NCBI GenBank assembly: GCA_045589455.1
Contig: JAZNPC010000010.1
Location: forward strand, 149 to 64,148
Length of the DNA: 64,000 bases
Direction: 5' to 3'
Source: Kiritimatiellia bacterium
Lineage (GTDB): Bacteria > Verrucomicrobiota > Kiritimatiellia > RFP12 > UBA3636
The position numbers were made by a program, and so were the translations under genes. The stretch's first letter is position 1. Every line of letters begins with the position of its first letter. Positions 1,195 through 64,000 of this stretch are shown in pieces. Below the pieces are notes generated by a model. It did no database searches and had not been told where the DNA came from. It was given only the letters and a program-made list of their open reading frames with translations.

Positions 1195-2160
1195 GACGCG
1201 AGACAATTAGACAGTGAAAAGCTAATTGTTGTTAGTCGCGTTGCTTATTGCTTTCGCCTAACACGGACACACATAGTGTGATTTTTACGGAGGACAATGG
1301 AGAATTGTACTAGCTTCCAATACTCCAAGAATCCCTCCGTGCCTCCTTACCTCTTTTTTCTCCGCGTTTCGCCGAAGGCTATAGCGAGAGCGCTTAAATA
1401 GTTGCACTTATTGCTTTCGCCTAACACGGAGGCTGGGGAGAACGGAGGCACGGAGAGGTTTGGGAAGATATTGGAGAAAGGGACTACAGCCCTTTGTGTG
1501 CTGACAGTATGACAGTTTGACAGAGCAGATGAGGGTGGCTTTGCCGCCCTAGACTCCCAACTGTCAAACTTTCCAACTCGCCCACTCGCAAACTGTCAAA
1601 CTTTCCAACACCTAAACAGTTCCATTTTTTTTGTATAGTTTGACAGTATGACAGTTTGATAGAGAAGATGAAGGTGGCTTTGCCGCCCTAGACCCCCAAC
1701 TGTCAAACTTTCCAACTCGCCCACTCGCAAACTGTCAAACTTTCCAAGCCTCAACACCTAAAAAGTTCCATTTTTTTATAGTTTGACAGTATGATAGTAT
1801 GACAGTTTGAGAGAGAAGATGAAGGTGGCTTTGCAGCCTCTCGCTTTCTCCCAAAACCCCATCACCCCTCCGTGCCTCCGTTCTCTTTATCCTCCGCGTT
1901 TCGCCGAAGGCTCAAGCGAGAGCGTTTAAATCGTTTCACTCATTGCTTTCGCCTAACACGGAGTACGGAGGTAAGGAGGAAAACTGCAAACAATAAAAAC
2001 CCCAGCAACTCTCCGTGTCTCCGTTCTCATGAAAATCACACTACGTGTGCTCCGCGTTTCGCCGAAGGCTATAGCGTCAGCTTGAAATCTGTCTTGTCGT
2101 CTAGCGTCTAACGTCACGATAGTCTTATCGTCTAATTGTCCTTGCGATAGTGCTTTAACA
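1195..2160. repeat. Mosaic intergenic repeat array 1, built from at least four recurring modules. R1 is a ~70 bp unit (ctccgcgtttcgccgaaggct…gcgtttaaatcgtt…ttgctttcgcctaacacgga), R2 is cacggacacacatagtgtgatttttacggagg, R3 is a ~135 bp unit rich in gacagtttgacag / ctgtcaaactttcc inverted repeats and present here in 2.5 tandem copies, and R4 is gaggctggggagaacggag…ggagaaaggg
   Basis: Read directly: the R1 copies lie at roughly 1364-1432, 1888-1960 and 2048-2080. The R3 tandem copies lie at roughly 1500-1629, 1630-1769 and 1770-1850. The same modules recur in the 6.6-7.9 kb array. Confidence 0.85.
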
Positions 2161-6604: not shown

Positions 6605-7885
6605 TGATGCGAGACTTTAGACGTTGAACGGACGCGAGACAATCAAACGTTGAAAGCTAATTGTCGTTAGTCGCGTTGCTTGTTGCTTTCGCCTAACACG
6701 GACACACATAGTGTGATTTTTACGGAGGACAAGGGAGCATTGTGCCAACAATCATTCCAGTACCCCAATCACCCCTCCGTGTCTCCGTTCCTCCAGAAAA
6801 CCACACTACGTGTGCTCCGTGTTTCGCCGATGGCTCAAGCGAGAGCGTTTAAATCGTTACACTTGTTGCTTACGCTCAACACGGAGTACGGAGGTAAATG
6901 GAGTACTATACTAACAATCATTATAATAACCCCAGCACCTCTCCGTGTCTCCGTTCTCTTAATCCTCCGCGTTTCGCCGAAGGCCACAGCGGGAGCGTTT
7001 AAATCGTTGCACTCGTTGCTTTCGCCTAACACGGAGACGCGGAGGCGCGGACAAAAGTGCTAGCAATCATTAACAACAACCCCATAACTCCCTCCGTGCC
7101 TCTGAGCCTCTTAATCCTCCGCGTTTCGCCGAAGGCTAGAGCGGGAGCGTTTAAATCGTTTCACTCATTGCTTACGCCTAACACGGAGGCTGGGGAGAAC
7201 GGAGACGCGGAGAGGTTTGGGAAGATATTGGAGAAAGGGGCTACAGCCCTTTGCGTGCTGACAGTATGACAGTTGGAGAGTGAAGATGAGGGTGGCTTGC
7301 CGCCCTAGACCCCCAACTGTCAAACTTTCCAACTCGCCCACTCGCAAACTGTCAAACTTTCCAACACCTAAACAGTTCCATTTTTTTATAGTTTGACAGT
7401 TTGACAGTATGATAGTATGACAGTTAGATAGTTGGAGAGAGAAGATGAAGGTGGCTTTGCCTCCTCTCGCTTTCTCCCCAAACCCCAGCACCTCTCCGTG
7501 TCTCCGTTCCTCCAGAAAACCACACTACGTGTGCTCCGCGTTTCGCCGAAGGCTAGAGCGCCAGCGACAAATCACTCAGCTGCGTACCCATCATCCGTGC
7601 AAATTTGTGCAAATTCGTGTTCGCGCCGCAGGCCTGAGCGTCAGCGTTTAAATCGTTGCACTCGTTGCTTTCGCTCAACACGGAGTACGGAGAAAAGGGC
7701 GCATTGTGCTAATCGTTTCACTCGTTGCTTTCGCTTAACACGGACACACATAGTGTGATTTTTACGGAGGTAAGGAGAATTGTGCTAGCAATCATTCCAA
7801 TACCCCAGAATATTCTCCGTGCCTCTGAGCCTCTTAATCCTCCGCGTTTCGCCGAAGGCTCAAGCGAGAGCGTTTAAATCAATCC
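6605..7885. repeat. Mosaic intergenic repeat array 2. It uses the same R1, R2, R3 and R4 modules as the 1.2-2.2 kb array, with about seven R1-type copies and 1.5 R3 copies
   Basis: Read directly: the R1-like copies lie at roughly 6813-6885, 6962-7033, 7112-7190, 7535-7560, 7640-7690 and 7838-7880. R2 lies at 6698-6730 and 7739-7771. R3 lies at 7257-7388 and 7389-7460. Confidence 0.85.
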
Positions 7886-10397: not shown

Positions 10398-10906
10398 GCT
10401 AAGTGCGTATAATAAGTAATTAACGTTATGCTTCTACCTTATGCTTAATATGCGGGCATTCGTGGAGCATACGTTGATTTGCGTGAACTTTTTCGGAGTG
10501 TTGGGGATTCAGCCCCAAACACTCCGTATTGCTTTATATACACCTACATACGCTATTGTGTCACCAGCACCACAATATAATCCACACAGGGCATTGCATT
10601 CTCTTAACACAGAGATGGTTGTAATTGCATTTGTGTAATTAAGTTATCCGTGTAAGTCATTCGTGTATGCACATTAGTGCAGTAAAACAGGATTAACAGG
10701 ATTGCTTGCGTTATAGCTTGAAGTGCGAGATTTTGTAATGTTTGGGGTTAGTCAGTGCTATCGCTTCAGGACTGAGCTATTCCGCTATATATTCCCTTAG
10801 TCTTTTAGAAAAATCGGTTGACTGCGGGGTGAGGGTATGGTAGAATCAAATGTGTTTTTTGCTAGTGTAAAGCAAAATGCTAATTTTTTCTAAAAAAGGA
10901 TTATAT

Positions 10907-51192: not shown

Positions 51193-51504
51193 TTGAATAG
51201 CAAGTTTTCTACAATAGAAAAGTTAAAGCCTTATTGGGACGATTTTAAAACAATTTTCTCTATGATTAAGGATTGCGTTACTGGAAAGTATAAAGAAACA
51301 CCATTTACAACAATTGCTAGCTTAGCTGGTGTATTAATTTATGTTCTTTCTCCAATTGATTTAATGGCTGATTTCATTCCACTTCTAGGATATGTGGATG
51401 ATGCTGCAATCTTGGGTCTTGCCATTAAACTAGCTGCTGCAGATATTGAAAAATATCGTCAGTGGAAAAAGACAATAGATGTAGAAGAAAAGCAGGTCAA
51501 CTAA
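51193..51504 (+). CDS. YkvA/DUF1232-family small membrane-associated protein. The frame is disrupted relative to an upstream ATG
   Basis: Carries the SPIDLMADFIPLLGYVDDAAILG motif characteristic of DUF1232. The annotated frame begins with TTG. A strong AGGAG RBS plus ATG at 51083 lies in the +1 frame, and the two frames would join if the A6 run at 51118-51123 were A7. Confidence 0.6.
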   Translation: MNSKFSTIEKLKPYWDDFKTIFSMIKDCVTGKYKETPFTTIASLAGVLIYVLSPIDLMADFIPLLGYVDDAAILGLAIKLAAADIEKYRQWKKTIDVEEKQVN

Positions 51505-51584
51505 TTTTCCCCAAAGAGCAAATCTAGCCTAGATTTCTTAGCTAGATTTGCTTTCCCCATAAATATATTCAAGAAATTGTAATT

Positions 51585-52172
51585 ATGAATAACATAGATA
51601 CTGGCCACGGAGCTGAAATTGCAGTAGGCTTAAGGAGTTGCTCTTCGATTATCCTTGTCCCTATTATTGCAATATGCTCAGGCATTATCATTGGTAAAGA
51701 GTACGGAACAGTTGTTGGTATTCTTGGTGGTATTGTTTGTAGCTCTATCTTTTTTAAGCTTTACCATAGGTTTATCGCTACGCAGATTAAAGGACTTACA
51801 GTACTAGACTGCTTGATTCCGTTTTTAGTTTCACTCGTTTCTGGTGTCATTTTTGCTCCAGTGTCACTTTTTTCAGCTAGTGTCTTTTCAATAGCCACAT
51901 GTATTTACTCTGGAGTACTATTGTCAGCAACACTATTCTTGTATAAGGCACAAAAAGTGTCTGTAGGATACCTTGTATTCCCATTTCTAGTCTTTATGTA
52001 TGAAATATTACCTATAGAGCTACCAACGGATCTAGATAACATATTTGCGCTTTCTGGTAATACAGTTCATCAGTTTATTGCATTAACTGCAGCTAAGATG
52101 AAAAAATCGCTCTCTAATGATTCTCCTACCTCAACAGATGACGAGACCATTATTGATGTCGACCCAGAGTAG
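51585..52172 (+). CDS. Polytopic membrane protein of unknown function
   Basis: 195 aa with 4-5 hydrophobic helices and an acidic C-terminal tail. It lies within the AT-rich island. Confidence 0.5.
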   Translation: MNNIDTGHGAEIAVGLRSCSSIILVPIIAICSGIIIGKEYGTVVGILGGIVCSSIFFKLYHRFIATQIKGLTVLDCLIPFLVSLVSGVIFAPVSLFSASVFSIATCIYSGVLLSATLFLYKAQKVSVGYLVFPFLVFMYEILPIELPTDLDNIFALSGNTVHQFIALTAAKMKKSLSNDSPTSTDDETIIDVDPE

Positions 52173-52248
52173 AAGCATATTTGGTAAATATATTTTATTT
52201 TGCATAGTATCATTTCTATGATGTAATAAAGAAATAAAGAAAGTTTTT

Positions 52249-53868
52249 ATGTGTTTATGGATTGTTGTTGGTTCTATTTTAGCATTTATTATAACAATAT
52301 GTATTATGTATTGGAATGTTGTTAAAATTTTATTAATTATAGTTGCTATAATTTATGTGCTATCTTTATTAGTCAGCTTAATTAAAAAAGTAATTAAAAA
52401 GGTTGAGCATGAAAATGAGTTGAAATTATTTGCTATAAATGAAGAGAATAAAACCGAAGAAAAAAAACAAAACATAAATTTCAAAAAGTTGTCAAATATA
52501 CTTTTTGTATCAACAATAGATTTAAGAGAGCATCCATTAAAAAACGAAAAGTATAAAAAACGTAAACAATATTTTGAAGTATTAATGTTTCTAATTAATA
52601 ATTCAGTGATTTCAGAAAAATTGAAAGATTTTACTGAAGGTCGTTTATCTATGTATTTTGATTGTTTGTTGCCTGAATTGATGTCTGAAAAGAGTGAAAT
52701 ATTAAATCAAAAAATAGAAGAAAAGGTTTTTATAAAAAAATTAATGCCTTTGTTTTATTTTGCTAATGTAAAGTATTCATATATATTTCTGTCAGATTTG
52801 TGTTTGTTTCTTCAAGAAGAATCGCTAATTTCATATGCAATAGTTGTATTAAAACGATATCTACCCAAATTTATGTGGGCAAAAATAGATAAAAAATATT
52901 ATAGAATTAAAAATTTATCAGTAATATCTGAAAAATATAAGCAGATTGCTGTTTTAATAGAGCAATATAAAACCAATATTGAATTTTTTGCTAGAAAGGA
53001 AAAAAGGGTAATTGTTACAGCTCTTGTTAGTGCAGGAAAATCAACACTAATTAATTCTTTAATTGGAGAAAGATTAACTAGAACAAAATCGGAAATTTGT
53101 ACAAGTAATTTGGCATACATATATAATAAAGCCTATAATGATGGGACCCTTCATTTTTATCAAAATGATAATAAAAAATCTTCTATAAACCAATGTGTGT
53201 GCTTTAATGCAAGTGAAGATGACATAAATACTTATGATATAAATGAAAAAATAAATGTTTCTGCATCGTTTTTAGGTGTTTACTCAAATTGGTCTAGAAT
53301 TTGTTTAATAGATACACCAGGGGTTGATGCTGCTATTAATGTGGAACATGGGGAGTGTACAAAAAAAGCTCTTTTAAATGAGTGTTATGATATGATTCTT
53401 TATGTGGTAAGTCCAAATCAAATAAGTACGGATTCACAAAAAGAATATTTAAAATGGATATTAAATAATCTTCCTAAAAAAAAGATAGTTTTCGTTATTA
53501 ATAAATTAGATACATTAAAACCTAAAGAAGATAGTATAGCTGATACAATATTTAATTTTTATAAAGATTTATGTGATATCGGTTTTAAGAATCCTACTAT
53601 TTGTCCAATATCTTCTTATTTTTCTTTCTTATTAAAGCAAAAAATATCAGGAAAAGACTTTTCCGAAGATGAAATTGACGATTTTAGGTTTTATAGTAGT
53701 AGGTTTTCTAAACCATTTTATAATTTATCAGGATATTATAACGAAGAATTAGAAGATATTAATCTTGAAATAAATGATTTATTGCAATTAAGCAAACGTT
53801 GTGGTTTATATGGTATTGAAAAAATAATAAATGAGGAAATAAATGAAAAAAATATTTATAAAATATAA
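52249..53868 (+). CDS. Bacterial dynamin-like GTPase 1, N-terminally membrane-anchored
   Basis: Two N-terminal TM helices. The dynamin-type G domain has G1 (ALVSAGKSTLINSLIG), G3 (LIDTPGVD) and G4 (FVINKLD) motifs. The 3' end overlaps the next gene. Confidence 0.8.
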   Translation: MCLWIVVGSILAFIITICIMYWNVVKILLIIVAIIYVLSLLVSLIKKVIKKVEHENELKLFAINEENKTEEKKQNINFKKLSNILFVSTIDLREHPLKNEKYKKRKQYFEVLMFLINNSVISEKLKDFTEGRLSMYFDCLLPELMSEKSEILNQKIEEKVFIKKLMPLFYFANVKYSYIFLSDLCLFLQEESLISYAIVVLKRYLPKFMWAKIDKKYYRIKNLSVISEKYKQIAVLIEQYKTNIEFFARKEKRVIVTALVSAGKSTLINSLIGERLTRTKSEICTSNLAYIYNKAYNDGTLHFYQNDNKKSSINQCVCFNASEDDINTYDINEKINVSASFLGVYSNWSRICLIDTPGVDAAINVEHGECTKKALLNECYDMILYVVSPNQISTDSQKEYLKWILNNLPKKKIVFVINKLDTLKPKEDSIADTIFNFYKDLCDIGFKNPTICPISSYFSFLLKQKISGKDFSEDEIDDFRFYSSRFSKPFYNLSGYYNEELEDINLEINDLLQLSKRCGLYGIEKIINEEINEKNIYKI

Positions 53869-56134
53869 CCCTTATTATTTGGAAACAAAATTTACTATAG
53901 ATGGTAAATCTCTTCCTACAAATAGTGAAATTAATGCACGTATTAATCAACCTGATGTGCGTCTACAAGAGTGGATAGAAGATTTACCTCAGCTTTTGAT
54001 TGATGAATGTAACGATAAGAAGTTTGACATTCAATTTCATGGTACTATATTAGATTACGAAGATGTTAAAGAGGTGTTTGAATGTGCTTCTAATGAAGAA
54101 AAGTTAGAGGTGAAGCTAGATAGAATACCTGCAAAAGAAACATCTGAAAAGGAATCTTTAATTGAAGATGTATTTAAAGAAATACAAAATGGACCTATTG
54201 ATGAACTACGTGATGAGAAAATAATTAATGCATTTAATAATGCAAAAAATAGTGAGTTTGAAATTTGTGTTGTAGCTACAATGAGTGCAGGTAAGTCTAC
54301 ATTGATAAATTCAATGCTTGGAGACAAAATGATGCCTTCAAGTCAAGAGGCTTGCACGGCCATTATTACTAGAATTAAAGATGTTGATTCAAATGTTAAT
54401 TGGCATGCTAAAGTATTTGGAAAAGATAACGAACTATTAGAATCAGTTGAAAGTCTTACATATGAAGAGATGGATAGATTTAATAGAGATTCTAAAGTAT
54501 CTTTAATACAAGCCGAAGGTAATATTCCTTTTGTAACCTCACAAAAAACTTCACTAGTTTTAATTGATACTCCTGGTCCAAATAATTCTAGAGATAAAGA
54601 ACATGAAAAAGTTCAAAGTAGATTTTTAGGTAAGTCGTCTAAAGCACTTGTCCTTTATATTATGGAAGGGACATATGGAAATAATGACGACAATGAATTG
54701 CTTCGTAAGGTTGCAGAGAGTATGAAGTCAGGCGGAAAGCAATCTAAAGACCGTTTCCTTTTTGTTATAAATAAGGTTGATGATCGTAAGCAAGAAGATA
54801 GTAAAATGGAGGATATGCTTTTAAGAATTAAGGACTATTTACAAATACATGGAGTTAAAAATCCAAATTTATATCCTGCAGCAGCTTTACCCGCACTTAA
54901 CATAAGATTAATGCAATCACATAATGACATTCTTGATGAAGACATTCTTGATGAAACAGAATTTAAAGTTAAAAAGTTAAATAGAAATGTTGATTTGCAT
55001 TTAGAAAAGTATTCTTCATTACCATTAAGCCTTAGAAGAAAAATTGATTCTGATTTAGAAATTGCTAAAAATAATGGAGATGTGTTTACACAGGCCTTAA
55101 TTCATACAGGAATAGTTTCTGTTGAGACGGCGATTCGTCAATATGTTGAAAAATATGCAAAAACAGCGAAAATTAAAAATATTGTAGATACTTTTAAAGG
55201 AAAATTAGAGGCTGTTTCTTATGAACAAGAAATGAAGAAAGAGATTGCTAAAAATGAAGAAGAGTGTGAAAAGATTACTGCACAAATAAGTTCGATAGAG
55301 AGTCAAATTAAAGACGGAAAAAATGCTCAAGTATTTAAAAAAGAAGTTTCAAAAGCATTGAAAAAAGTTAAAAAAGAAATAGAGGAAAAGATTAATCAAA
55401 ATGTAGAAGAGTTTCAAAATGAATTATTGGAAATAATTAACACATATGGGAATGATGATATTCCCGTTGAAAAAATCTCTTCAATTTTGTCTCAGGTAAG
55501 TAAAAAGGTAAAGTCAATCGAAGCAAATTTTCAAGTTGCTTTAGAGGGATCAATCAATACTGGATTAATATCAACAAGTAAATATCTTTTAGAAGAGTAT
55601 AAAACAAAACTATCATCGTTAACAAAAGATATAGATTTGAAAAACCTTTCAGGAGTTTTTATTGACCCATTGAAGTTAATGTCAGGTAGTGTTCCAAGTA
55701 TAGATAGCTTAAATATTGATGTAGAAGAAAAAGAAGAGGTAGTAGGTGAAGAATGGATTGAAAATACAAACAAAAAATGGTGGAAGTTTTGGACTTGGTT
55801 TGATGATCCTGGTCATTATATAACAAAGTATAAAACTGTAAAATATGTTTTAGGTAGCGAATTAGCTCAAGAAATGCTCGCACCTATAGAGGATACATTA
55901 ATTCAAAACGGAGAATCTGCATTAAAACAAGCGTTATATCAATCTCAAAGAATAGCGGAAAAATATGAGAAAGAGTTTGTTCGTTTAGATGATGTATTGA
56001 CAAAAAAATTGCGTGAGTTAAAACAAATTACTTCTGATAAAACAAACAAAGAGAAGTTGATTAACGATGCACAAGGAAAATTAAATTGGTTAGATAATAT
56101 TAAGAAAAGAGTTGATTCGATTCTTGAAATATAA
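53843..56134 (+). CDS. Bacterial dynamin-like GTPase 2 with a long helical stalk
   Basis: G1 (VATMSAGKSTLINSMLG), G3 (LIDTPGPN) and G4 (FVINKVDD). There is about 440 aa of charged, coiled-coil-like C-terminal sequence. The start overlaps the preceding DLP gene by 26 nt. Confidence 0.85.
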   Translation: MKKIFIKYNPYYLETKFTIDGKSLPTNSEINARINQPDVRLQEWIEDLPQLLIDECNDKKFDIQFHGTILDYEDVKEVFECASNEEKLEVKLDRIPAKETSEKESLIEDVFKEIQNGPIDELRDEKIINAFNNAKNSEFEICVVATMSAGKSTLINSMLGDKMMPSSQEACTAIITRIKDVDSNVNWHAKVFGKDNELLESVESLTYEEMDRFNRDSKVSLIQAEGNIPFVTSQKTSLVLIDTPGPNNSRDKEHEKVQSRFLGKSSKALVLYIMEGTYGNNDDNELLRKVAESMKSGGKQSKDRFLFVINKVDDRKQEDSKMEDMLLRIKDYLQIHGVKNPNLYPAAALPALNIRLMQSHNDILDEDILDETEFKVKKLNRNVDLHLEKYSSLPLSLRRKIDSDLEIAKNNGDVFTQALIHTGIVSVETAIRQYVEKYAKTAKIKNIVDTFKGKLEAVSYEQEMKKEIAKNEEECEKITAQISSIESQIKDGKNAQVFKKEVSKALKKVKKEIEEKINQNVEEFQNELLEIINTYGNDDIPVEKISSILSQVSKKVKSIEANFQVALEGSINTGLISTSKYLLEEYKTKLSSLTKDIDLKNLSGVFIDPLKLMSGSVPSIDSLNIDVEEKEEVVGEEWIENTNKKWWKFWTWFDDPGHYITKYKTVKYVLGSELAQEMLAPIEDTLIQNGESALKQALYQSQRIAEKYEKEFVRLDDVLTKKLRELKQITSDKTNKEKLINDAQGKLNWLDNIKKRVDSILEI

Positions 56135-56145
56135 AGGAGTATATT

Positions 56146-56664
56146 ATGCCTTTAACTAAAGCATTTTATGAAGCAATAAGAACAAAAAATGTTCGTCGAG
56201 TTAGAATAATGTTAAAAAATAGCCTTGTTGTTGATCCATCCTTTTCTGAATATAAATCAATGATTGATATTGCATCTAATTTAGAAGGATTGTTTGATGA
56301 GCATGATGGAAAGATTTTTAATAATGAAAAAAGTTTTTGGAACGATGAATATGTAAGTAAAGAAATGGCAAGACTTATTTCTAATTTTTCTAAGGAAAGA
56401 ATTGATCATTTAAAGGATGTTATTCGTTTCTTGAATCCGATGAATACTAATCAACAAAAGCATTATGGTAAATCCAAAAGGTTTTCACATCAAAAGAGAA
56501 AAATAATTACAGGAGCAGTTGTTGGTGCTACAATTGGTGCATTGTTAGGTAATGTAATAAATGACGAGAATGGAATTGTGTCAGTATTATTCGGAGTTGC
56601 AGGAGCTATAGCTGGTAGTGTTGTTGTGAATTGTATCTCTAATGAGGATAAAGGAAATGAGTGA
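56146..56664 (+). CDS. Small protein with a C-terminal glycine-zipper membrane segment
   Basis: 172 aa. The N-terminal ~120 aa form a soluble domain, followed by ITGAVVGATIGALLGNV…VLFGVAGAIAGSVVV (GxxxG repeats). There is an AGGAG RBS. Confidence 0.6.
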   Translation: MPLTKAFYEAIRTKNVRRVRIMLKNSLVVDPSFSEYKSMIDIASNLEGLFDEHDGKIFNNEKSFWNDEYVSKEMARLISNFSKERIDHLKDVIRFLNPMNTNQQKHYGKSKRFSHQKRKIITGAVVGATIGALLGNVINDENGIVSVLFGVAGAIAGSVVVNCISNEDKGNE

Positions 56665-59600
56665 TAGAGTTGTTTTGGTCAAAGACCATAATTTGAACAA
56701 TTCAATTTTGACGGATGATAATCTTATTGGACAAGGAGAGGGTAAATTTCCTTCGATAACTAAATTGGAGTCAAATTTAAAAGAATCAAGTAAGCTTGTA
56801 CAAGATATTGTTTTGAAAAATTATTTACACAAGTTAAAAGATTTAGAAGTTGTTCCTTTGCCCAATGAATTCAAAGATATAAATAAGCTTCGAATTTTTG
56901 AAATAAACGAAATGGTTTATCAAAAGGATGAATATTCAACCTATAAATTTGCTTCTGTTTTTAGCTCTTTACAAAGCTTAGATTGTGGAGTGTTTATTAT
57001 TGTCAATAGCAATGGAGAAAAAACAGATTTTTATATGGGAGTTCGTTCTAAAGATAATAATCGTACTACTAAATCTTTAAAAGATACTTTGAAAAATGCT
57101 TTGATTGGGCATTTCCCTGGTGTTAAAGTGAAAGATATGTTAGACCCAGAAGTAGAGGATTTTTTATCTGAAATTTCAAAAAATAATGTATCTTCAGTAT
57201 CATGTATTGCTAATAATAAAGATGAAGATTTTAAGAATAATGATAATTTTATCCAAGGTCTTGAAAAATTGGCTTTAGCAATGCAAGGGAAAAAATATAC
57301 TGCTATAGTGCTAGCAAACTCTATTAATAATAGTCAAATTTCGGATGTTCGGAGTGCTTATGAAACCATTTACACTCAGATATCTCCTTTTGCTAATATG
57401 CAACTTTCATATGGGACGAATACTGCTTTAAGTATTTCTGATGCTTTGTCTAAAGGAGCTACAACAGGAAGTTCTTATTCTAAAAATATAGGTACTTCTA
57501 GAGGAACTTCAACATCAAGTGGGGATACATATTCCGAATCAGCTTCAAAGCCTGACATTTTATCTTCTGGATTAAAGATTGCGGGGGCTGCTATTTTAGG
57601 AGCCGCTGCTATAGCTACTGCTATTCCTACAGGAGGGGTTAGTTTAGCAGTAGCTGGAGCAGCTATAGTGAATTCAATTCCAATGGTAACCAAAACCAAA
57701 GGTCGTTCTCACTCAAAAAACAAATCTCAAAGTGTAACATCTAACGAAGGTGAAACATTTGGAGAAAATTCTAGTACTTCTGAAAATGCTACCCATACTA
57801 TAGGAGAAACCATTGGAAAAACAGAAAATATGCAGTTAACAATGCAAAATAAAACATTGTTAAATACATTGGAGAAAATAGATTGTCAGTTACAACGTCT
57901 TAATGAGTGTGAAAGTTTAGGGATGTGGGAATGTGCTGCGTATTTTATGTCAGATAGTTTAGAAACTGTTGAGATGGCCGCAGGAACATATAAGGCTTTA
58001 ATGAAAGGCTCTAAATCAGGTGTTGAAACATCCGCAATTAATACTTGGGGATGGTATGAAAAAAATAAAATTCCAATATTATGTGAATATATTACAAATT
58101 TTATACACCCAATATTTGCCTACCCTACAGATGGAGAATTTATCCCAGTGACTCCAGCATCAATGGTAAGTAGTAATGAGCTTGCAATTCAAATGGGGTT
58201 GCCTAGGAAATCTGTATGTGGTTTTCCTGTTGTTGAACATGCTGAATTTGGAAAAGAGGTTGTTTCTAACTTAGACATTAAATCCTCAAGAACTATTCCT
58301 ATTGGGAATATTTTTTCTATGGGTTCAGAAACAAAAACACCAGTTAAATTAAGTATAGATTCATTGACAATGCATACATTTGTGACTGGTTCAACAGGTT
58401 CAGGTAAGAGTAATACATTATATGAGATTTTGTATCAATTGCATAATTTCAATAATGTCCCTTTTCTAGTAATAGAACCAGCAAAAGGTGAGTATAAAAA
58501 CATTTTTGGAAATTCTCATAATGTGTCAGTATATGGAACGAATGCAAAGAAAACTGAGGTCTTAAAAATAAACCCTTTTAGTTTCCCAGATGATATTCAT
58601 GTATTAGAGCATTTGGATAGACTAGTAGAAATATTTAATGTATGTTGGCCAATGTATGCTGCGATGCCCGCAATTTTGAAGGAAGCAATTGAAAAGGCAT
58701 ATATTTCTGTTGGTTGGGATTTGATTGATTCAATAAATGTCAATGGAAATATATTCCCAAATTTCACTGATGTTTTAGAACAAATTGAGATTGTTATTAA
58801 TGAGTCTCAATATTCAAAAGATTGTAAAGGAGATTATTCTGGTGCTTTAACAACGAGAATTCGCTCTATGACAACAGGTTTAAATCGTCTTATTTTTACA
58901 CAAAATGAAATTTCTAATTCTGATTTATTTGATAAAAGTGTTATTGTTGATTTAAGTAGAGTTGGATCTACAGAAGAGAAAGCTTTAATTATGGGAGTTC
59001 TTGTAATGAAGCTGAATGAATATAGAATGACATCAGGGAAGATAAATAGCTCATTGTCTCACATAACAGTTTTGGAAGAAGCACATAATTTGTTGAAGCG
59101 TACATCAACAGAACAAAGCTCAGAGAGTTCAAACCTTCTTGGTAAATCAGTAGAAATGCTCTCAAATTCTATCGCAGAAATGCGTACATATGGAGAGGGA
59201 TTTATTATTGCTGATCAAGCACCAGGTTTGTTAGACATGTCTGTAATACGAAATACAAATACAAAAATTATACTTCGTTTGCCAGAGAAAAGTGATAGAG
59301 AATTAGTTGGTTATGCTGCTTGTTTAAAGGATAATCAGTTAGATGAAATCTCTAAGCTGCATAGAGGCGTTGCGGTAATATATCAAAATGATTGGATAGA
59401 GCCAGTTCTTGTACAGATTAGAAAATGCAATTTAGAAGAGAATTCTTATTCATACAACCCGCCATCAAAACAAACATCAAAACCGAATGTCTTGAAGCAA
59501 TTGATAAATTTTTTAATATGTAATAATGTTAGGGAAAAATTAGATTTCTCTATTGCAGATATAGAGCAAGGAATAGATTTTTTAGCTTTGTCTTCGTCAA

Positions 59601-59950
59601 ATTTAAATTTTATTAAAAAACTACTTGGAGAATATAAAAAGTTTAATTCATTAGAAATATGGAGTAACCATAAATATAATTCACTTGCTTTAAATATAGT
59701 GAATATTCTTAATCTTAGAAATAAAATTGAGCAATTAGTTTTAAATTCATCTAATAACTCATCGTTAACACATGATTTAAAAGAAATTGTTTTAGATATA
59801 TTCCCAAAATCTTCTGAATCATTTATTATGACTTTAATACATTTGTTTATGAAGGACTTTAGTTTAAGTCGAGAGGAAAATGAACAACGTACTAAAATAT
59901 ATTTAAATTGGTTAAGTTATATTACAAAATATGGAGTAAAAAATGATTAA
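56657..59950 (+). CDS. Large fusion protein with an N-terminal unknown domain, a Gly/Ser/Thr-rich glycine-zipper hydrophobic segment, and a C-terminal HerA/FtsK-superfamily (DUF87-like) ATPase
   Basis: The ORF runs from 56642. The ATG at 56657 has an AAAGGA RBS. The hydrophobic Gly-zipper segment is LKIAGAAILGAAAIATAIPTGGVSLAVAGAAIV. Walker A (VTGSTGSGKSNTLYEIL) is encoded at about 58384-58410, and Walker B (ITVLEEAHNL) at about 59059-59085. The 3' end overlaps the next ORF by 8 nt. Confidence 0.8.
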   Translation: MSDRVVLVKDHNLNNSILTDDNLIGQGEGKFPSITKLESNLKESSKLVQDIVLKNYLHKLKDLEVVPLPNEFKDINKLRIFEINEMVYQKDEYSTYKFASVFSSLQSLDCGVFIIVNSNGEKTDFYMGVRSKDNNRTTKSLKDTLKNALIGHFPGVKVKDMLDPEVEDFLSEISKNNVSSVSCIANNKDEDFKNNDNFIQGLEKLALAMQGKKYTAIVLANSINNSQISDVRSAYETIYTQISPFANMQLSYGTNTALSISDALSKGATTGSSYSKNIGTSRGTSTSSGDTYSESASKPDILSSGLKIAGAAILGAAAIATAIPTGGVSLAVAGAAIVNSIPMVTKTKGRSHSKNKSQSVTSNEGETFGENSSTSENATHTIGETIGKTENMQLTMQNKTLLNTLEKIDCQLQRLNECESLGMWECAAYFMSDSLETVEMAAGTYKALMKGSKSGVETSAINTWGWYEKNKIPILCEYITNFIHPIFAYPTDGEFIPVTPASMVSSNELAIQMGLPRKSVCGFPVVEHAEFGKEVVSNLDIKSSRTIPIGNIFSMGSETKTPVKLSIDSLTMHTFVTGSTGSGKSNTLYEILYQLHNFNNVPFLVIEPAKGEYKNIFGNSHNVSVYGTNAKKTEVLKINPFSFPDDIHVLEHLDRLVEIFNVCWPMYAAMPAILKEAIEKAYISVGWDLIDSINVNGNIFPNFTDVLEQIEIVINESQYSKDCKGDYSGALTTRIRSMTTGLNRLIFTQNEISNSDLFDKSVIVDLSRVGSTEEKALIMGVLVMKLNEYRMTSGKINSSLSHITVLEEAHNLLKRTSTEQSSESSNLLGKSVEMLSNSIAEMRTYGEGFIIADQAPGLLDMSVIRNTNTKIILRLPEKSDRELVGYAACLKDNQLDEISKLHRGVAVIYQNDWIEPVLVQIRKCNLEENSYSYNPPSKQTSKPNVLKQLINFLICNNVREKLDFSIADIEQGIDFLALSSSNLNFIKKLLGEYKKFNSLEIWSNHKYNSLALNIVNILNLRNKIEQLVLNSSNNSSLTHDLKEIVLDIFPKSSESFIMTLIHLFMKDFSLSREENEQRTKIYLNWLSYITKYGVKND

Positions 59951-60896
59951 TAATTTTGACATTAGTAATATCAATAAATTTAACAATGAACTAAAGGATT
60001 GTAATTTATATAAGCAGATTGAAGGAGAAGATAAAAAAAAATCAGGAATAGAAAAATCTCTGGATAATGTTTGTACTCAAGAAACAAATCCAAGTGTTGA
60101 TGAACAAGGACATGTATATAGAAAAGAGAATGGAGATTTGCTCCCTAATAATAATTTCGTGATGGGTGAAAATACATTTAAAACAGATGATAATGGCAAA
60201 ATCTACGCTATAGATGGAAAACTTGTTCCAGAAAATAAGTATGAATTAAATTGTGCTTCGTATGAAACAGACGAATTGGGACGTATTAGAAAAGTAGTTG
60301 CTCAAGACTTAAAGATAACACCAGAAAACTTAAGAGATTCCACAGCACAAACTTTAGTTGGCGGCAAAGATAGATTGCTAGGAGATAATGGCGGTCATTT
60401 GGTTGCTCGTATACATGGGGGCGATGCTGGTATTGGAAATCAAGTAGCTGTTCGCGACGTAATTAATAAAGGTGATTGGAAGATTGATGAGAATACAATA
60501 AGTGATTTAATAAAAAAAGGTAAAAATGTCAGGACGGAAGCGGAAATTTTTTATGATGGTAATTCTGAGCGACCATCTAAAATAGAGATTTCAATCTATT
60601 CTAATGGAGAAAAAATAAGCGAAGCTGTTTATGATAACAATATTGGATCGAAGGATTTATTAGGATTGGAAAAACTTAAAGATATATTAAGCCCTAGTGA
60701 TTATCAAAACCTTTGCGATGAAATTTCTCAATTAGAAAAAAATGGAGATAAGGTTAGTATTACTTCTGTAACATTTAAGTCAGGAGAAGATCCTTCAATA
60801 GCAGTGAGAAATGAAACAACGGAAAAAACTTGTTATTGGCCATGGAATACACGCAATGAAGGAAAAACATTGAGTGATGTATTTCACAATTCATAA
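59943..60896 (+). CDS. Putative effector protein translationally coupled to the HerA-like ATPase. It carries a His/Gly/Asp-rich patch compatible with a metal-dependent (His-Me-finger-like) nuclease or hydrolase
   Basis: 317 aa with a GGAG RBS. The conserved-looking segment is KDRLLGDNGGHLVARIHGGDAGIGNQVAVRD. The functional call is speculative. Confidence 0.55.
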   Translation: MINNFDISNINKFNNELKDCNLYKQIEGEDKKKSGIEKSLDNVCTQETNPSVDEQGHVYRKENGDLLPNNNFVMGENTFKTDDNGKIYAIDGKLVPENKYELNCASYETDELGRIRKVVAQDLKITPENLRDSTAQTLVGGKDRLLGDNGGHLVARIHGGDAGIGNQVAVRDVINKGDWKIDENTISDLIKKGKNVRTEAEIFYDGNSERPSKIEISIYSNGEKISEAVYDNNIGSKDLLGLEKLKDILSPSDYQNLCDEISQLEKNGDKVSITSVTFKSGEDPSIAVRNETTEKTCYWPWNTRNEGKTLSDVFHNS

Positions 60897-60916
60897 ACAA
60901 CAGGTAGGTGTAAATA

Positions 60917-61309
60917 ATGGAAATAACTATAACCTATGAAGAGGTTTCTAATATAATAAAAACCAAATCTAATGTAAATGCGACATTTACAATGATTGAC
61001 AGCGAATCAATAAGTGTTAAAGTTAAACCTGGATTGCTTATTCCTGCGGTTAATATAACCTTAAAATTAGAAAAAGATGCTAAAGAGTATAAAATTCGTT
61101 ATGGCTCTGGTGTTGTGTCTCTTCTAGTAACAAAAATAGTAAATTTGTTCGTAAATGATAAACTACCTGAATTTGTCAGATTAGATACATCGAATAATAC
61201 TTTATCTTTTGATTCTACAATTAAGCATAATGGGATTGTTGTAGATATTAAGGATATTACATTTTTAGAAGAAAAAATTTCAATATCTTTATTTTTAAAA
61301 GATTTGTAA
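60917..61309 (+). CDS. Small hypothetical protein of 130 aa immediately downstream of the putative effector, a possible partner or immunity-like protein
   Basis: ORF with an AGGTG RBS. No motifs recognised. Confidence 0.5.
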   Translation: MEITITYEEVSNIIKTKSNVNATFTMIDSESISVKVKPGLLIPAVNITLKLEKDAKEYKIRYGSGVVSLLVTKIVNLFVNDKLPEFVRLDTSNNTLSFDSTIKHNGIVVDIKDITFLEEKISISLFLKDL

Positions 61310-61734
61310 AATTATCAGTCATCTCATATTGCTCAACCTAAATTCGGTGTTGCGCATCTGAGTTATTCACCAGATTATTCTAATGTCAAAATCATCACTT
61401 AACAAAATCAATGACCGGCTTTAATTATGCTACAATGAAGGGTTAAAAAAAGCAACAATCAAAGCATTGTCTCCTAAGTATTATGTATTTGTAGAAGTTT
61501 GATAGGTTTTTGGAATAAAAATCATTGTCTATTTTATTAGAGTTAGTATTGTGATTTGTAAGCATTTGTAGTTGTATTTTTGTTCCACCTTCCATAAGAT
61601 TTATTCGTCAAATGAGGAATAAACAAATGTAGGCGGGATGTGCTGCTAGGGTTCCGTGAAATCGCCAAGGCCGTATTTCGGCAATATGATGAATGACCTA
61701 ACACCATTCCGCTTACTTCTTTTAAGGAGATTAT

Positions 61735-62451
61735 ATGAACGAAAACATTTTGCAAGCAAAACTAGATAAATTGTTTGATAATTGGAAGGCAGCAATAGAT
61801 GCTTGTCCAGAAATTCCTGCAGAAATTAAGGAATGCTTCGTGCGCGATGGCTTCTATCCAGGCTACCTAAACCAAAAGTGTAAGGTGCTGTTTGTGGCTC
61901 GCGAATCACTTAGTGTTGAAGGAGATTATATAAAAGAGGTTTTTGATGCATATAAAAGTAAACGTGTTGGTGGCAAAAATATCAATCAGTATCAATTCCA
62001 TGCGTTAATGATGTATATAGCATATGCTCTAAATAATAATTGCTTTGATTGGAATAGCATTCCTTGGGCAGAAAAGCTCTGCGAGACATTTGGTACGCCT
62101 GGCGGACTTAGCTTCGCTTTTATGAATTTGTCTAAATTCAGTAATTGGTCGAAATCTAGTTGGCAAAGTAATTGGAATTTGATAAATTCTTCTCTAAATG
62201 TTAGTGGCAACGATTCTTTCATCAAACAGGAAATTGAATTGCTAGACCCAGATGTAATTATTACTATGAATTTAGATGGTAATTTAAGTTACTTGGGTGA
62301 AATGCGCAAGATTGTTAATACCACCGATATCAATAAATATGCTTACAAGATCAATGGTAAGGAAATACCTCTCTACGATATGTGGCATTTTTCTGCCCCA
62401 AGTAAGTCGCCAAGAGGAAATTATTTGGAGCCACTTAGTAAATTAGTTTAA
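61735..62451 (+). CDS. Hypothetical protein of 238 aa
   Basis: Strong AAGGAG RBS and AT-rich codon usage consistent with the island. It has a weak resemblance to a nucleotide-binding-fold N-terminus (KVLFVARES) and a WHFSAPS segment. No confident assignment is possible. Confidence 0.55.
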   Translation: MNENILQAKLDKLFDNWKAAIDACPEIPAEIKECFVRDGFYPGYLNQKCKVLFVARESLSVEGDYIKEVFDAYKSKRVGGKNINQYQFHALMMYIAYALNNNCFDWNSIPWAEKLCETFGTPGGLSFAFMNLSKFSNWSKSSWQSNWNLINSSLNVSGNDSFIKQEIELLDPDVIITMNLDGNLSYLGEMRKIVNTTDINKYAYKINGKEIPLYDMWHFSAPSKSPRGNYLEPLSKLV

Positions 62452-62465
62452 AAGGGAGAAAAAAC

Positions 62466-62666
62466 ATGGCAAAGCAACGTGTTGATTTGACAGATAAGAA
62501 GTGTGCTACCTGTCGTTGGTGGCAAGGTGATCGTGAGGTGATATTTTGGTCTCGTAAGCCATTTAAAGTCGAGTGCGATGCACAAGGTATGTGTCCATCC
62601 TGCAAGCAAAATAAGACCTATAGCTTTAGCTGCAGAAATTGGGTTCCATGGGAAAAGCTTCCATAA
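62466..62666 (+). CDS. Small zinc-ribbon protein with CxxC…CxxC
   Basis: 66 aa with KKCATCRWW…GMCPSCKQNK. A GGGAG RBS precedes it, 14 nt after the preceding gene. Confidence 0.5.
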   Translation: MAKQRVDLTDKKCATCRWWQGDREVIFWSRKPFKVECDAQGMCPSCKQNKTYSFSCRNWVPWEKLP

Positions 62667-62749
62667 TGCTACGTTTGACAGTTAATTACTGAATTTAGAT
62701 TAAAAATATAAATGAGGTTTTATAACTTAAAGTAAGGAAAAAAGTAATA

Positions 62750-64000
62750 TGAGAAGTTGTCTAACTGTGTTTTTAGGAATCGTTATTATTGGTGCTATTC
62801 TTCTGATATATTTCTTTTGGGAAGCAATAATAGCGTTATTATTAGCGTTGTTACAAATAGTTTTGACATTTATTGCAATAGTGGTGGGAATTGTGGTAAT
62901 GATTGCTGTAGTAAGTTATTTTAGGAAAAGAAAAATAAAAGAATTAGCACGCTTAGAGCGGGAAAGAAATGCTACATTAGAAAATAGAATTCGAGAAGAA
63001 GTTTATATACCGGTTCCTGAATATGCAGTTACATCTAACAATTATTATGAATGCTTACACATTCTTGAAGAAGCTGCAGATTATAAAAGAAGGATTGAAA
63101 ATGCTTCATCAAAGCTTGAAAAGAGCCAATTAAAAAATGAGTTGTCTAATTTCAGGCTTAAATCATTCTATGTTATTTCTCTACGTCATGAAGTTGATGA
63201 AGAAAAATGGGCGTCTTATGAAACAAAGATTAATAATATTTTATCTAAAAATGGTGATTGGAATTTGCTAAGAATAGAAGATAATGAAAAATCATTAGTT
63301 ACTGGAAAATACGAAGCTAAAGTAAAAAATAATTTAGGTAATATAACATTGAGGCTTGAGGATAATAATATCGATGATGTCATTAAAAGAGTTGATTTGA
63401 TTAAAGATTTTGATACATCAGGTATTTTTACAACGCACAGTTTGACTAAGCTTAATGATAAAACAGAACAAATGACTAAATGTTATGATTCTATTGAGAA
63501 GAGGTATAAAGAGCTATCGGATGTGGGTGAAATAACTAATAAGATTTTGGTAGAAGCTCGTGGTGCTGCATATCGGAATATTTTCTTAGGTGTAGAACTT
63601 TTGAATTATATTAGAGATAATTCTGGAGGAACGGGGCTAAAGGTTCAACATGATTCGGTTGATATGCAAGAAATTAATCTTTCAACAGATATTCCATTAA
63701 GTAGTTTGAATATTGATTTTGGAGAAGTTTTGAAAGTGGGTTTGTTTAACAAAGAAGGCACTAAAGCTATTTCAAGAATTTTGAAAAATCCTAAGAGTAT
63801 TGGTTACAATAGTGCTTTAATTGGCATTTCTGTTGCAAAAGAACTTTTAAAAGCACGTAATAAAGCAATTCAGGCAAATATAAAACAACAAAAGGAACTG
63901 ATAAAATGTATTGACGATGCTTGTAAAAATTATACAAATACTCGTGCTCAAATGTTTAGAGCAATTGAAATAGTTAAAGCGATTGTTCATTCAAATGCAG
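62750..64000 (+). CDS. N-terminally membrane-anchored protein of unknown function (partial; it continues beyond the window)
   Basis: ATG at 62750 after an AAGGA RBS. Two N-terminal TM helices (LTVFLGIVIIGAILLIYFFWEAIIALLLALLQIVLTFIAIVVGIVVMIAVV), then more than 350 aa of charged sequence. There is no stop before the window end. Confidence 0.6.

Follow-up and report, generated by a model that had tools for sequence, protein, structure and literature searches.

A predicted EsaD-class DNase toxin encoded in the swappable slot of an apparently undescribed dynamin–HerA gene cluster

The 64,000-nucleotide (nt) stretch analysed here (hereafter the window; contig JAZNPC010000010.1 of a Kiritimatiellia bacterium assembly, GCA_045589455.1) carries towards its right end a gene for a predicted nuclease toxin, coupled to the gene of a HerA-clade ATPase and followed by a small open reading frame (ORF). 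A preliminary description, made from the sequence alone, had placed the start of a 317-aa ORF 8 nt before the ATPase stop and a 130-aa ORF 20 nt further downstream, and the ORF coordinates bear out both statements. The 317-aa nuclease ORF (59943-60896, ATG start) shares ATGATTAA (59943-59950) with the 1,102-aa ATPase ORF, whose stop lies at 59950, giving an 8-nt overlap. A gap of 20 nt separates the nuclease stop from the ATG start of the 130-aa ORF (60917-61309), and AGGTAGGTG sits upstream of the latter. A promoter and terminator scan, whose counts were at shuffle level and which is informative only on this point, found no terminator-like site between the nuclease gene and the 130-aa ORF. 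The features at the coupled genes, with the evidence for each, are as follows:

59943..60896, + strand: 317-aa EsaD/NucA-type ββα-metal (ββα-Me) nuclease (Pfam, PDB, alignment, AlphaFold2 and Foldseek)
60384..60476, + strand: predicted catalytic ββα-Me motif of the nuclease, residues 148-178 (EsaD alignment, residue roles from PMC9616950, invariance in 22 homologues)
60615..60851, + strand: alpha+beta C-terminal domain of the nuclease (invariant D231, N232, S236, L239, G268, T274, S275 and E291)
60917..61309, + strand: 130-aa ORF of an uncharacterised small-protein family, a real gene and not the canonical nuclease partner (HMMER relatives, dN/dS)

Pfam model PF13930 (Endonuclea_NS_2) matches residues 99-220 of the 317-aa protein (E=1e-20, 74.7 bits, cut-off 27), the alignment spanning profile positions 4-130 of 132, and among solved structures the closest in sequence is the nuclease domain of EsaD/EssD, a type VII toxin of S. 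aureus (E=2e-18; 34% identity over 148 aligned columns). The segment DNGGHLVAR of the window protein aligns with DDGGHLIAR of EsaD (chains 8guo and 8gun, the latter an H528A mutant with Ala at that His). In EsaD, H528 is catalytic and N551, on helix αB, binds hydrated Mg2+ (PMC9616950); counting positions along the alignment equates these residues with H152 (codon 60396-60398) and N175 (codon 60465-60467) of the window nuclease. The predicted roles are accordingly those of general base for H152 and metal ligand for N175, with N166 and R171 as probable supporting residues. The EsaD finger loop (R552-K557) falls in a 5-residue gap of the alignment, so the family of the window nuclease has no finger loop.

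Across an alignment of 22 homologues (33-95% identity), the residues D148, G150, G151, H152, L153, A155, G160, N166, V168, R171, N175, G177 and D178 are invariant. Most of them lie within DNGGHLVARIHGGDAGIGNQVAVRD (residues 148-172), the string that the preliminary description had quoted as a Gly-His…His…Asn/Asp metal-binding patch; N175, G177 and D178 lie just beyond it. The second His of the string, H158, and its final Asp, D172, vary across the homologues and are for that reason placed outside the catalytic core. The proposed patch therefore survives in its GGH histidine, which aligns with EsaD H528, and not in its second His, while the predicted metal-binding Asn, N175, stands outside the quoted string. 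Judged from the alignment, the motif is well beyond chance.

An AlphaFold2 (AF2) model of the nuclease, computed from the 22 homologues, reached a mean predicted local distance difference test score (pLDDT) of 82.9, mostly above 90 at residues 81-300, and a predicted template modelling score of 0.81. Its top Foldseek match in the PDB was EsaD 8gun (E=2e-13, target TM-score 0.77, root-mean-square deviation 1.3-1.9 Å), followed by Anabaena NucA, EndA, Sda1, EndoG and EXOG, and the model contains a ββα-metal finger packed on a central beta-sheet. The preliminary description had named a non-catalytic fold, or homologues devoid of the motif, as findings that would refute a nuclease; the model matches the EsaD nuclease, and D148, G150-G151-H152 and N166 are kept in all 22 homologues, with the second His variable. 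Of the two classes then put forward, a His-Me finger of the DRGH type or an HNH-like core, the His-Me finger assignment is upheld by PF13930, EsaD and the AF2 model, and the class is NucA/EsaD-like and not DRGH or HNH proper. We read ORF 59943-60896 as an intact gene for a predicted Mg2+-dependent ββα-Me (His-Me finger) DNase toxin of the Endonuclease_NS_2/Tox-NucA/EsaD class. Taken alone, the nuclease simply adds one more member to an established toxin family.

Around its core (residues 99-224) the nuclease has a low-confidence leader without a match (residues 1-55) and a run of family-specific beta-hairpin repeats (residues ~56-120; TDDNG, Y-x-T-D-x-x-G-R) that is expanded in some homologues. 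Beyond the EsaD-aligned region follows the family-specific alpha+beta C-terminal domain (residues 225-303; pLDDT 84-97), which has no Pfam match and which we propose, by inference, to be a docking or regulatory module. A lineage-specific tail of ~9 residues, ending in flank-derived sequence, comes after the residue 303 region, and the window nuclease is the most divergent member of its family, at about 45% identity. No signal peptide, membrane segment or LXG domain was found by Pfam and hydropathy in this or the other effectors described below; searches of Pfam, PADLOC and NCBIfam likewise gave no LXG/WXG match in the nuclease and no type VII component among the operon ORFs.

Upstream of the nuclease, the ATPase gene is itself preceded by four further genes, the first of uncertain membership in the system:

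51585..52172, + strand: 195-aa multi-pass membrane protein (several hydrophobic segments), left-flank gene of a variable hotspot, system membership uncertain
52249..53868, + strand: dynamin-like GTPase 1 (DLP1), 539 aa (Pfam Dynamin_N E=8e-16, 58.9 bits)
53843..56134, + strand: dynamin-like GTPase 2 (DLP2), 763 aa (Pfam Dynamin_N E=1.3e-16)
56146..56664, + strand: 172-aa protein whose N-terminal domain is conserved and whose C-terminus forms a glycine-zipper membrane hairpin (weak glycine-zipper and SLATT_1 matches)
56642..59950, + strand: 1,102-aa membrane-anchored HerA-clade ATPase (Pfam DUF87 E=9e-15; PADLOC HerA models down to E=8e-20)

The six operon ORFs of the window copy are all intact, with their overlaps and couplings kept. 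Dynamin_N is above cut-off for both GTPases. DLP1, which begins with an N-terminal hydrophobic, predicted membrane-spanning region (residues 1-50), is orthologous to DLP1 of the related loci L001 and L004 (30-33% identity); DLP2 aligns along its whole length with DLP2 of the same two loci (42-46% identity) and is found in nearly all related loci. Partial PADLOC matches link both proteins to the Leo dynamins (LeoA E=1e-13 and LeoBC E=1.7e-6 on DLP1, LeoBC E=1.3e-3 on DLP2); the LeoA match covers residues 347-427 only, and the NCBIfam model DLP_LeoA_gen scores 38.7 bits against a cut-off of 325. The 172-aa protein has its hydrophobic segments at residues 120-166 and occurs as one or two orthologous copies per related locus.

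In the ATPase, the DUF87/HerA domain occupies the C-terminal half (~540-935), with a Walker A motif GSTGSGKS at 583-590 and a Walker B-like VLEEAH at 810-815, while in the N-terminal half a conserved domain leads into a Ser/Thr-rich stretch that encloses a hydrophobic Gly/Ala hairpin (residues ~306-350, from hydropathy). This Ser/Thr/Gly-rich low-complexity stretch (window 57400-57850, residues ~255-400) accounts for a partial match to the NCBIfam 'serine-rich protein' model NF033849. Among the other NCBIfam models, CedD (E=2e-25) and HerA_antiphage (E=1e-16) match below cut-off; the closest solved chains in a profile search are all HerA-clade and include those of anti-phage complexes. Full-length identity to the ATPases of L001, L004 and L007 is 45-46%. 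Hydropathy predicts membrane anchoring of the ATPase, one GTPase and the glycine-zipper protein.

The coupling of the effector gene to a HerA-like ATPase, as the preliminary description had it, is conserved in more than 100 loci, and the clade assignment is supported by DUF87, PADLOC and the PDB profile search. It overlooked the two dynamin-like GTPases and the glycine-zipper protein of the operon, and the fact that a swappable toxin/immunity cassette occupies the effector position. These more than 100 related loci have a common core of a WYL regulator (not always present), two dynamin-like GTPases, one or more glycine-zipper proteins and a ~1,100-aa membrane-anchored HerA-clade ATPase. Around nuclease homologues of 41-45% identity, the gene order reads WYL regulator, DLP (~430 aa), DLP (~760 aa), one or two small proteins, ATPase (~1,030-1,080 aa), nuclease and small ORF, the small core proteins having a common N-terminal domain and one of them a glycine-zipper membrane hairpin. 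This order recurs in 27 genome loci from Lachnospiraceae, Clostridium, Veillonella, Phascolarctobacterium, Peptostreptococcaceae, Tissierellia, Elusimicrobium and one Bacteroidota, hosts that span monoderm and diderm lineages.

A scan of metagenome contigs with the ATPase alignment returned at least 564 matches, from which 80 loci were kept and annotated with hidden Markov models built in this analysis. The core (WYL, DLP1, DLP2, glycine-zipper protein and ATPase) is conserved in these loci, and a PF13930 nuclease is present in only about a third of them. In most of the 77 loci tabulated, the offset from ATPase to effector lies between -45 and +46 nt. A second architecture (L007, L023, L027-L034) encodes a ~520-aa GTPase, a β-helix protein and two ~335-aa proteins in place of DLP1 and the glycine-zipper proteins, and keeps the part running from DLP2 through the ATPase and nuclease to the small partner gene sm115 treated below. 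Two loci (L015 8993-9571 and L016 8973-9551) contain an extra 192-aa ORF between ATPase and nuclease that resembles the N-terminal part of the nuclease and may be a duplicated leader or repeat module. Genes neighbouring the homologues include Abi_2, AAA_21 and M78+DUF4411, and some loci lie beside conjugation genes. The open-access literature yielded no description of a dynamin, HerA and toxin/immunity combination, and no paper with both "polymorphic toxin" and "dynamin-like". The cluster is horizontally mobile and combines known modules in an arrangement that is apparently undescribed.

In nearly every locus, the ATPase gene is followed by an ORF of 170-360 aa and then by one of 90-150 aa. 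Clustering and Pfam searches resolve these two-gene cassettes into the following classes, sm115 being a conserved family of small proteins (92-144 aa) encoded directly after the nuclease:

WHH/colicin-DNase with SUKH-1: 17 of 77 loci
WHH/colicin-DNase with DUF6985: 16 of 77 loci
PF13930 nuclease with sm115: 14 of 77 loci
PF13930 core only with a membrane protein: 4 loci
PF13930 core only with a clear YezG-like protein (39.3 bits): 2 loci
LHH with SUKH_5: 2 loci
putative PoNe toxin with PoNi: 2 loci
toxin without family assignment with DUF7832: 3 loci

The Pfam matches behind these classes cover both toxins (E-values: WHH 5e-14, Colicin-DNase 3.5e-13, LHH 5e-27) and partners (SMI1_KNR4 2e-13, PoNi 2.5e-13, SUKH_5 6e-17, YezG-like 9e-10). 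An HExxH protein was also seen in the effector slot, and all identifiable effectors are nucleases. PF13930 is paired with partners other than sm115 in 7 of the 77 loci, and three loci hold two full-length effector/immunity pairs in tandem. Effectors of different toxin classes share a leader motif, E-x-D-[KR]-P-[IL], with 19 of 70 (27%) carrying it as against 14 of 636 control ORFs; a strongly conserved N-terminal leader in all effectors was considered and rejected, the alignment showing short motifs only. By their family assignments, the genes in the slot after the ATPase are exchangeable polymorphic-toxin/immunity pairs.

For nucleases of the window type, the canonical partner is sm115. It follows the nuclease in 25 of 27 genome loci and in all 15 metagenome loci whose nuclease has the C-terminal domain, and is present in L001-L008; in total, all 48 comparable loci outside the window lineage carry it, and in the 40 that could be scored directly for the nuclease C-terminal domain the two co-occur without exception. 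Four of 16 sm115 members match Pfam PF04634 (YezG-like) over nearly their full length, one above cut-off (22.9 against 21.7 bits) and the others at 16-19 bits, and hhalign against a clear YezG-like member gives E=1.8e-4 with a probability of 48%. The sm115 profile found no EsaG in the PDB and had no match in NCBIfam. Tox-NucA has Imm36/DUF600 on record as its primary partner (PMC3482391), and EsaD is inhibited by EsaG (PMC9616950). Given the Pfam and hhalign matches and these two precedents, sm115 is probably a divergent YezG/EsaG-like immunity protein, an assignment that is not secure because the PDB and NCBIfam searches were empty. No sm115 was found in any frame of the 64 kb of the window, and on this sequence evidence the window lineage has lost its usual YezG-like partner.

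The 130-aa ORF that occupies the position of sm115 in the window has no match in Pfam, NCBIfam, PADLOC, PHROG or the PDB, and profile searches against PDB and Pfam were also empty. An indexed search retrieved only relatives of at least 92% identity, and an exhaustive HMMER search a further 17 remote ones of about 130 aa and 23-46% identity, which make the ORF a member of a real, uncharacterised family; its dN/dS (ratio of non-synonymous to synonymous substitution rates) against P0136 is 0.41. Its AF2 model, built on a shallow alignment, was unusable (pLDDT 44.5). The family is unrelated to sm115 (hhalign probability 1%), and no nuclease gene stands beside its remote relatives in any of six contexts examined, three of which abut dynamin/GTPase clusters. 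One of these loci (L040, 98-469) has a 195-like gene, whose C-terminus lies upstream of the 130-like ORF, and then a different triple-dynamin cluster; in another (L132, 4591-5405), a 130-like gene and its 132-aa neighbour, which may be its paralogue, are convergent with a further dynamin cluster. The other contexts place 130-like genes after a patatin-like gene, after a metallophosphoesterase gene or on short contigs. The 130-aa family may be linked to dynamin islands rather than to nucleases.

Comparison with sister strains places the window operon in a variable hotspot. In four of them (L009-L012), the flanks are 93.5-98.4% identical to the window and the operon is absent, window 51492-60882 being replaced by 821 bp with a 230-aa gene; ~40 sister-strain contigs encode a 99%-identical 130-aa protein without the operon, with the 238-aa and 66-aa genes of the right flank also there. 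Two further features mark the right border:

60883..60896, + strand: final 14 nt of the nuclease gene (TTCACAATTCATAA), where the segment common to operon-free sister strains begins on the left (homology with L009-L012 resumes here)
61417..61550, + strand: 134-bp copy of a 135-bp repeat, a remnant of the 230-aa gene 3' end plus 46 nt (97% identical to L009 9834-9968)

The 34-nt leader upstream of the 130-aa ORF is 100% identical, and the ORF itself 99.5% identical, to the sister strains, both above any flank. In L009, a second copy of the 135-bp repeat lies at 10501-10633, so that direct repeats bracket the 130-aa module there, and the right-hand copy alone is left in the window; the repeats hint at how the module moves. 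The hotspot (window 51492-61440), between a DUF1232 gene and the 238/66-aa gene pair, accommodates at least four alternative cargos, of which three are GTPase- or dynamin-based: in addition to the window operon and the lone 230-aa gene, L046 has an AAA+/GTPase/dynamin cluster and L048 a triple-dynamin cluster. The 195-aa protein, which has no family match in Pfam, PADLOC or NCBIfam, is 86-96% identical in sister strains and there precedes the two other GTPase/dynamin cargos. On the right, the genes for the 238-aa protein (61735-62451), which bears a faint resemblance to family-4 uracil-DNA-glycosylases (E=0.08), and for a 66-aa Cys-rich protein (62466-62666) form the flank in all variants. Dispersed repeats of ~150-400 bp and 72-88% identity were also noted at window 1868-2096, 6735-7205 and 7711-7880 and, near the hotspot in sister strains, at L009 8088-8331 and 12862-13254.

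From about 52 kb to the window end the GC content is ~30%, against ~40% upstream, and this drop identifies the region as an island. An integration-signature search at its borders found no noteworthy flanking direct or inverted repeats, no tRNA and no Rfam match. The methionyl-tRNA synthetase encoded in the window is 62-71% identical to sequences from metagenome-assembled genomes of Kiritimatiellia and Lentisphaerae, which makes the host a diderm bacterium of the Planctomycetes–Verrucomicrobia–Chlamydiae (PVC) group. A Firmicute host, suggested by the taxonomy of the homologues, was rejected on this evidence; the host genes in window 1-51000 include several RND/MacA-type periplasmic adaptor proteins. 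Acquisition across phyla from Firmicutes, where the cluster is common, is the most likely origin of the low-GC island. The last ORF (62749-64000), which runs off the window end, is still low in GC, has no Pfam match and carries a hydrophobic segment at its start, ahead of a long, probably helical region rich in Lys and Glu.

These comparisons bear on the suggestion, made in the preliminary description, that the 130-aa ORF is a modulator or immunity protein of the nuclease. Such a pairing is not the norm of the family, in which sm115 is the partner in 48 of 48 loci elsewhere, and the idea of a dedicated small partner also has to reckon with the ~40 operon-free contigs and with remote relatives that have no nuclease neighbour. 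By the pattern of homology, the 130-aa gene belongs to a separately exchanged module, which abuts the nuclease in the window lineage. An alternative is that the 130-aa protein is a non-homologous replacement inhibitor of a diverged nuclease, and an orphan immunity gene in the operon-free sister strains. Where the 130-aa ORF stands alone, the final 14 nt of the nuclease gene still precede it, as one would expect of an orphan immunity gene; in the window the 20-nt spacing, a good ribosome-binding site and the missing terminator suit a pair, and the small ORF follows the nuclease wherever this lineage is readable (the window, the P0001 contig and L044/L045). The same nuclease domain has at least three partner families elsewhere, the window nuclease is the most divergent member of its family, and an intact toxin with no recognisable inhibitor needs an explanation.

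Set against this, the 130-aa protein resembles neither sm115 nor any immunity family, its remote relatives lack a nuclease neighbour in all six contexts and adjoin dynamin/GTPase clusters in three, and the nuclease C-terminal domain is elsewhere always accompanied by sm115. The nuclease followed by a 130 variant in L044 is moreover decaying. In L044/L045 a mosaic nuclease gene without an ATPase gene upstream precedes the small ORF; the L044 nuclease has accumulated 18 non-synonymous codon changes against 6 synonymous ones, as under neutrality, and has Cys at a conserved Arg/Lys position, which together indicate decay. We therefore rejected L044/L045 as evidence for a functional nuclease and 130-aa pair, and the repeated linkage of the two genes may reflect one ancestral junction. 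We regard a replacement inhibitor as a tentative proposal, somewhat below an even chance.

The explanation that best accommodates the observations overall, and the one we hold to be moderately probable, is that the 317-aa protein is an EsaD-class DNase effector of a mobile dynamin–HerA system, gated by the ATPase through removal of an inhibitor. In this scheme, the toxin–inhibitor complex would dock on the ATPase ring through the N-terminal leader of the toxin, its C-terminal domain or both; ATP-driven remodelling would strip off the inhibitor, as with the removal of EsaG from EsaD, and so release the inhibitor-free DNase; and the dynamin pair and glycine-zipper protein would couple the stripping to a membrane event. 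As to its purpose, we favour, with about even confidence, an intracellular anti-phage or anti-plasmid role of the abortive-infection type. We lean this way because the ATPase is of the HerA clade and its closest solved relatives include anti-phage HerA enzymes; because two-gene dynamin operons are a validated anti-phage system; because the WYL regulators and the neighbourhoods (Abi_2, AAA_21, M78+DUF4411, conjugation genes) resemble those of defence islands and mobile elements; because the identified effectors are only nucleases, without export signals; and because the cluster occurs in both monoderm and diderm hosts. The occupation of the same hotspot by alternative GTPase cargos is a further point for defence.

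Several considerations weigh against this reading. Docking, inhibitor stripping and the trigger are modelled on EsaD-EsaG/EssC and on HerA-effector complexes. Immunity proteins of the SUKH, PoNi and YezG families are characteristic of toxins that act on other bacteria, and a machine for export would account at least as well for the membrane-anchored ATPase, the common effector leader and the loci with two pairs. The link of sm115 to YezG is weak, most members scoring below the Pfam cut-off and the profile finding neither EsaG nor an NCBIfam match. Finally, if an inhibitor is essential, a window copy with no recognisable one means that the model is incomplete, that the 130-aa ORF substitutes for it, or that the inhibitor is encoded outside the window.

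Export is a serious competitor to gated intracellular release. On this account the dynamins, the glycine-zipper protein and the membrane HerA ATPase would form a new trafficking apparatus for polymorphic toxins, in which the ATPase, having recognised the leader and displaced the immunity protein, would either expel the DNase or pack it into vesicles made by the dynamins, in both cases to kill competitors, while the downstream gene would protect the producer and its kin. The cassettes indeed belong to classic interbacterial families (WHH, LHH, colicin-DNase and NucA/EsaD with SUKH, PoNi and YezG), and EsaD itself is exported after EsaG has been stripped off (PMC9616950). The predicted membrane anchors of the ATPase, one GTPase and the glycine-zipper protein, the leader motif common to unrelated toxin domains and the full-length double pairs of some loci agree with such a route, as does the reported link of LeoA-type dynamins to vesicle-borne toxin release (PMC4159319). 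Yet no known trafficking domain or signal peptide was found in the effectors, which as far as identified are only nucleases, with no cell-wall, membrane or NAD-targeting toxins among them; in the diderm hosts (Veillonella, Phascolarctobacterium, Elusimicrobium, Bacteroidota and the PVC host) a machine of the inner membrane would have no access to the exterior; and the WYL regulators and defence-island-like neighbours, an ATPase nearer to HerA than to FtsK/EssC and a lack of arrays of orphan toxin tips or immunity genes all point away from it. We consider export possible, if rather unlikely. Similarly doubtful, in our estimate, is a broader conjecture in which the dynamin pair, glycine-zipper protein and HerA ATPase would constitute an unrecognised polymorphic-toxin machine, serving either as an export or vesicle-loading route of gut anaerobes or as an ATPase "uncorking" toxin–immunity pairs on a membrane-level infection signal, with a freely exchangeable cassette and the 130-aa protein as a newly recruited inhibitor family.

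A different objection concerns the window copy alone, which might be a crippled remnant: recombination at the right border would have removed the immunity gene, leaving a nuclease that is silent, poorly expressed or decaying, and a local pair without function. The missing sm115, the ~9-residue non-canonical tail ending in flank-derived sequence, a highly mosaic hotspot with its four or more cargos and 135-bp repeats, and the visible decay of the related L044 variant would suit this, as would the greater rarity of the nuclease than of the small ORF in the sampled population (6 cluster members against about 40 contigs). Since a remnant would hardly keep six intact operon ORFs with their overlaps and couplings, retain every catalytic and structural invariant of the nuclease and recur as several near-identical 317-318-aa copies in other samples, we judge it improbable. 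A DNA-processing machine outside any conflict system, in which a HerA/CedD-like membrane ATPase would translocate DNA for uptake, export or repair and the nuclease process it, can draw on CedD, a DNA translocator, as the best NCBIfam match of the ATPase (E=2e-25, far below cut-off), on the HerA-NurA precedent for an adjacent ATPase and nuclease and on the conjugation genes beside some loci, but is very hard to credit for a strain-variable, island-borne cluster whose interchangeable toxin domains each come with a dedicated immunity protein, an arrangement in which a housekeeping nuclease makes no sense.

The value of the window nuclease lies in its setting, in which toxin/immunity cassettes in the style of type VI, type VII and contact-dependent systems are attached to a conserved dynamin and HerA core that is abundant in gut and rumen Firmicutes (the metagenome matches cited above) and reaches other phyla. 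Two questions become testable here, the role of bacterial dynamin islands such as Eleos and the control of effectors by HerA ATPases, and the swappable slot offers a natural experimental handle, because the cassettes are exchangeable and a single catalytic His can be mutated; [Clostridium] aminophilum (KH1P1), Veillonella caviae (DSM 20738) and Kandleria vitulina are cultured carriers. If export were true, the cluster would represent a new mode of secretion; if defence were true, polymorphic-toxin/immunity pairs would serve as ATPase-gated suicide or restriction modules.

Among known systems, EsaD/EssD with EsaG (Tox-NucA with Imm36) is the closest to the effector end of the cluster: the window protein has the same nuclease fold and catalytic residues as predicted here, its relatives have a YezG-like gene directly downstream, and an ATPase of the FtsK-HerA superfamily is encoded alongside. 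It differs in that the window nuclease lacks an N-terminal type VII domain, LXG or otherwise, and has no type VII neighbours, that the ATPase is HerA-clade with a single ATPase domain and is not EssC, and that the finger loop (R552-K557), proposed to trigger EsaG-induced unfolding (PMC9616950), is deleted while a conserved C-terminal domain is added. The window copy further differs in carrying no YezG-like gene and in residing in a diderm PVC bacterium.

The free-standing toxins of the cluster (170-360 aa) recall polymorphic toxin systems (PMC3482391) in their interchangeable WHH, LHH, NucA and colicin-DNase domains with matching SUKH, PoNi and DUF600-like immunity proteins and in a short common N-terminal region, but have none of the catalogued trafficking domains; the word "dynamin" has 0 occurrences in that catalogue, and a dynamin and membrane HerA machinery was not found there. 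Taken as a whole, the cluster family shows variable toxins, a common N-terminal region and an immunity gene directly downstream, as polymorphic toxins do, while in the window the 130-aa ORF behind the toxin matches no immunity family and no sm115.

With Sir2-HerA, DUF4297-HerA and HerA-NurA, the cluster has in common a HerA-clade ATPase gene with a translationally coupled effector gene directly downstream, and the HerA enzymes of these systems are the solved chains nearest to the window ATPase. Sir2-HerA and DUF4297-HerA, however, consist of two genes with a soluble HerA of ~500-700 aa (from chain lengths), whereas the window ATPase, at 1,102 aa, also contains a membrane hairpin and an additional N-terminal domain, and window-type clusters comprise 6-8 genes, including two dynamins and a glycine-zipper protein, with NucA, WHH or LHH toxins as effectors, each followed by a small partner ORF that belongs to an immunity family in the main cassettes. 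The front of the cluster, in turn, resembles Eleos (LeoA with LeoBC), a two-gene operon that gives B. subtilis protection from jumbo phages, for which the P-loops of both GTPases are required. In both cases genes for two dynamin-like GTPases stand side by side in variable islands, and the LeoA and LeoBC models match in part. Eleos, however, ends with its two genes and has no nuclease, ATPase or immunity gene, whereas the dynamins of the window form the front half of a cluster of 6-8 genes.

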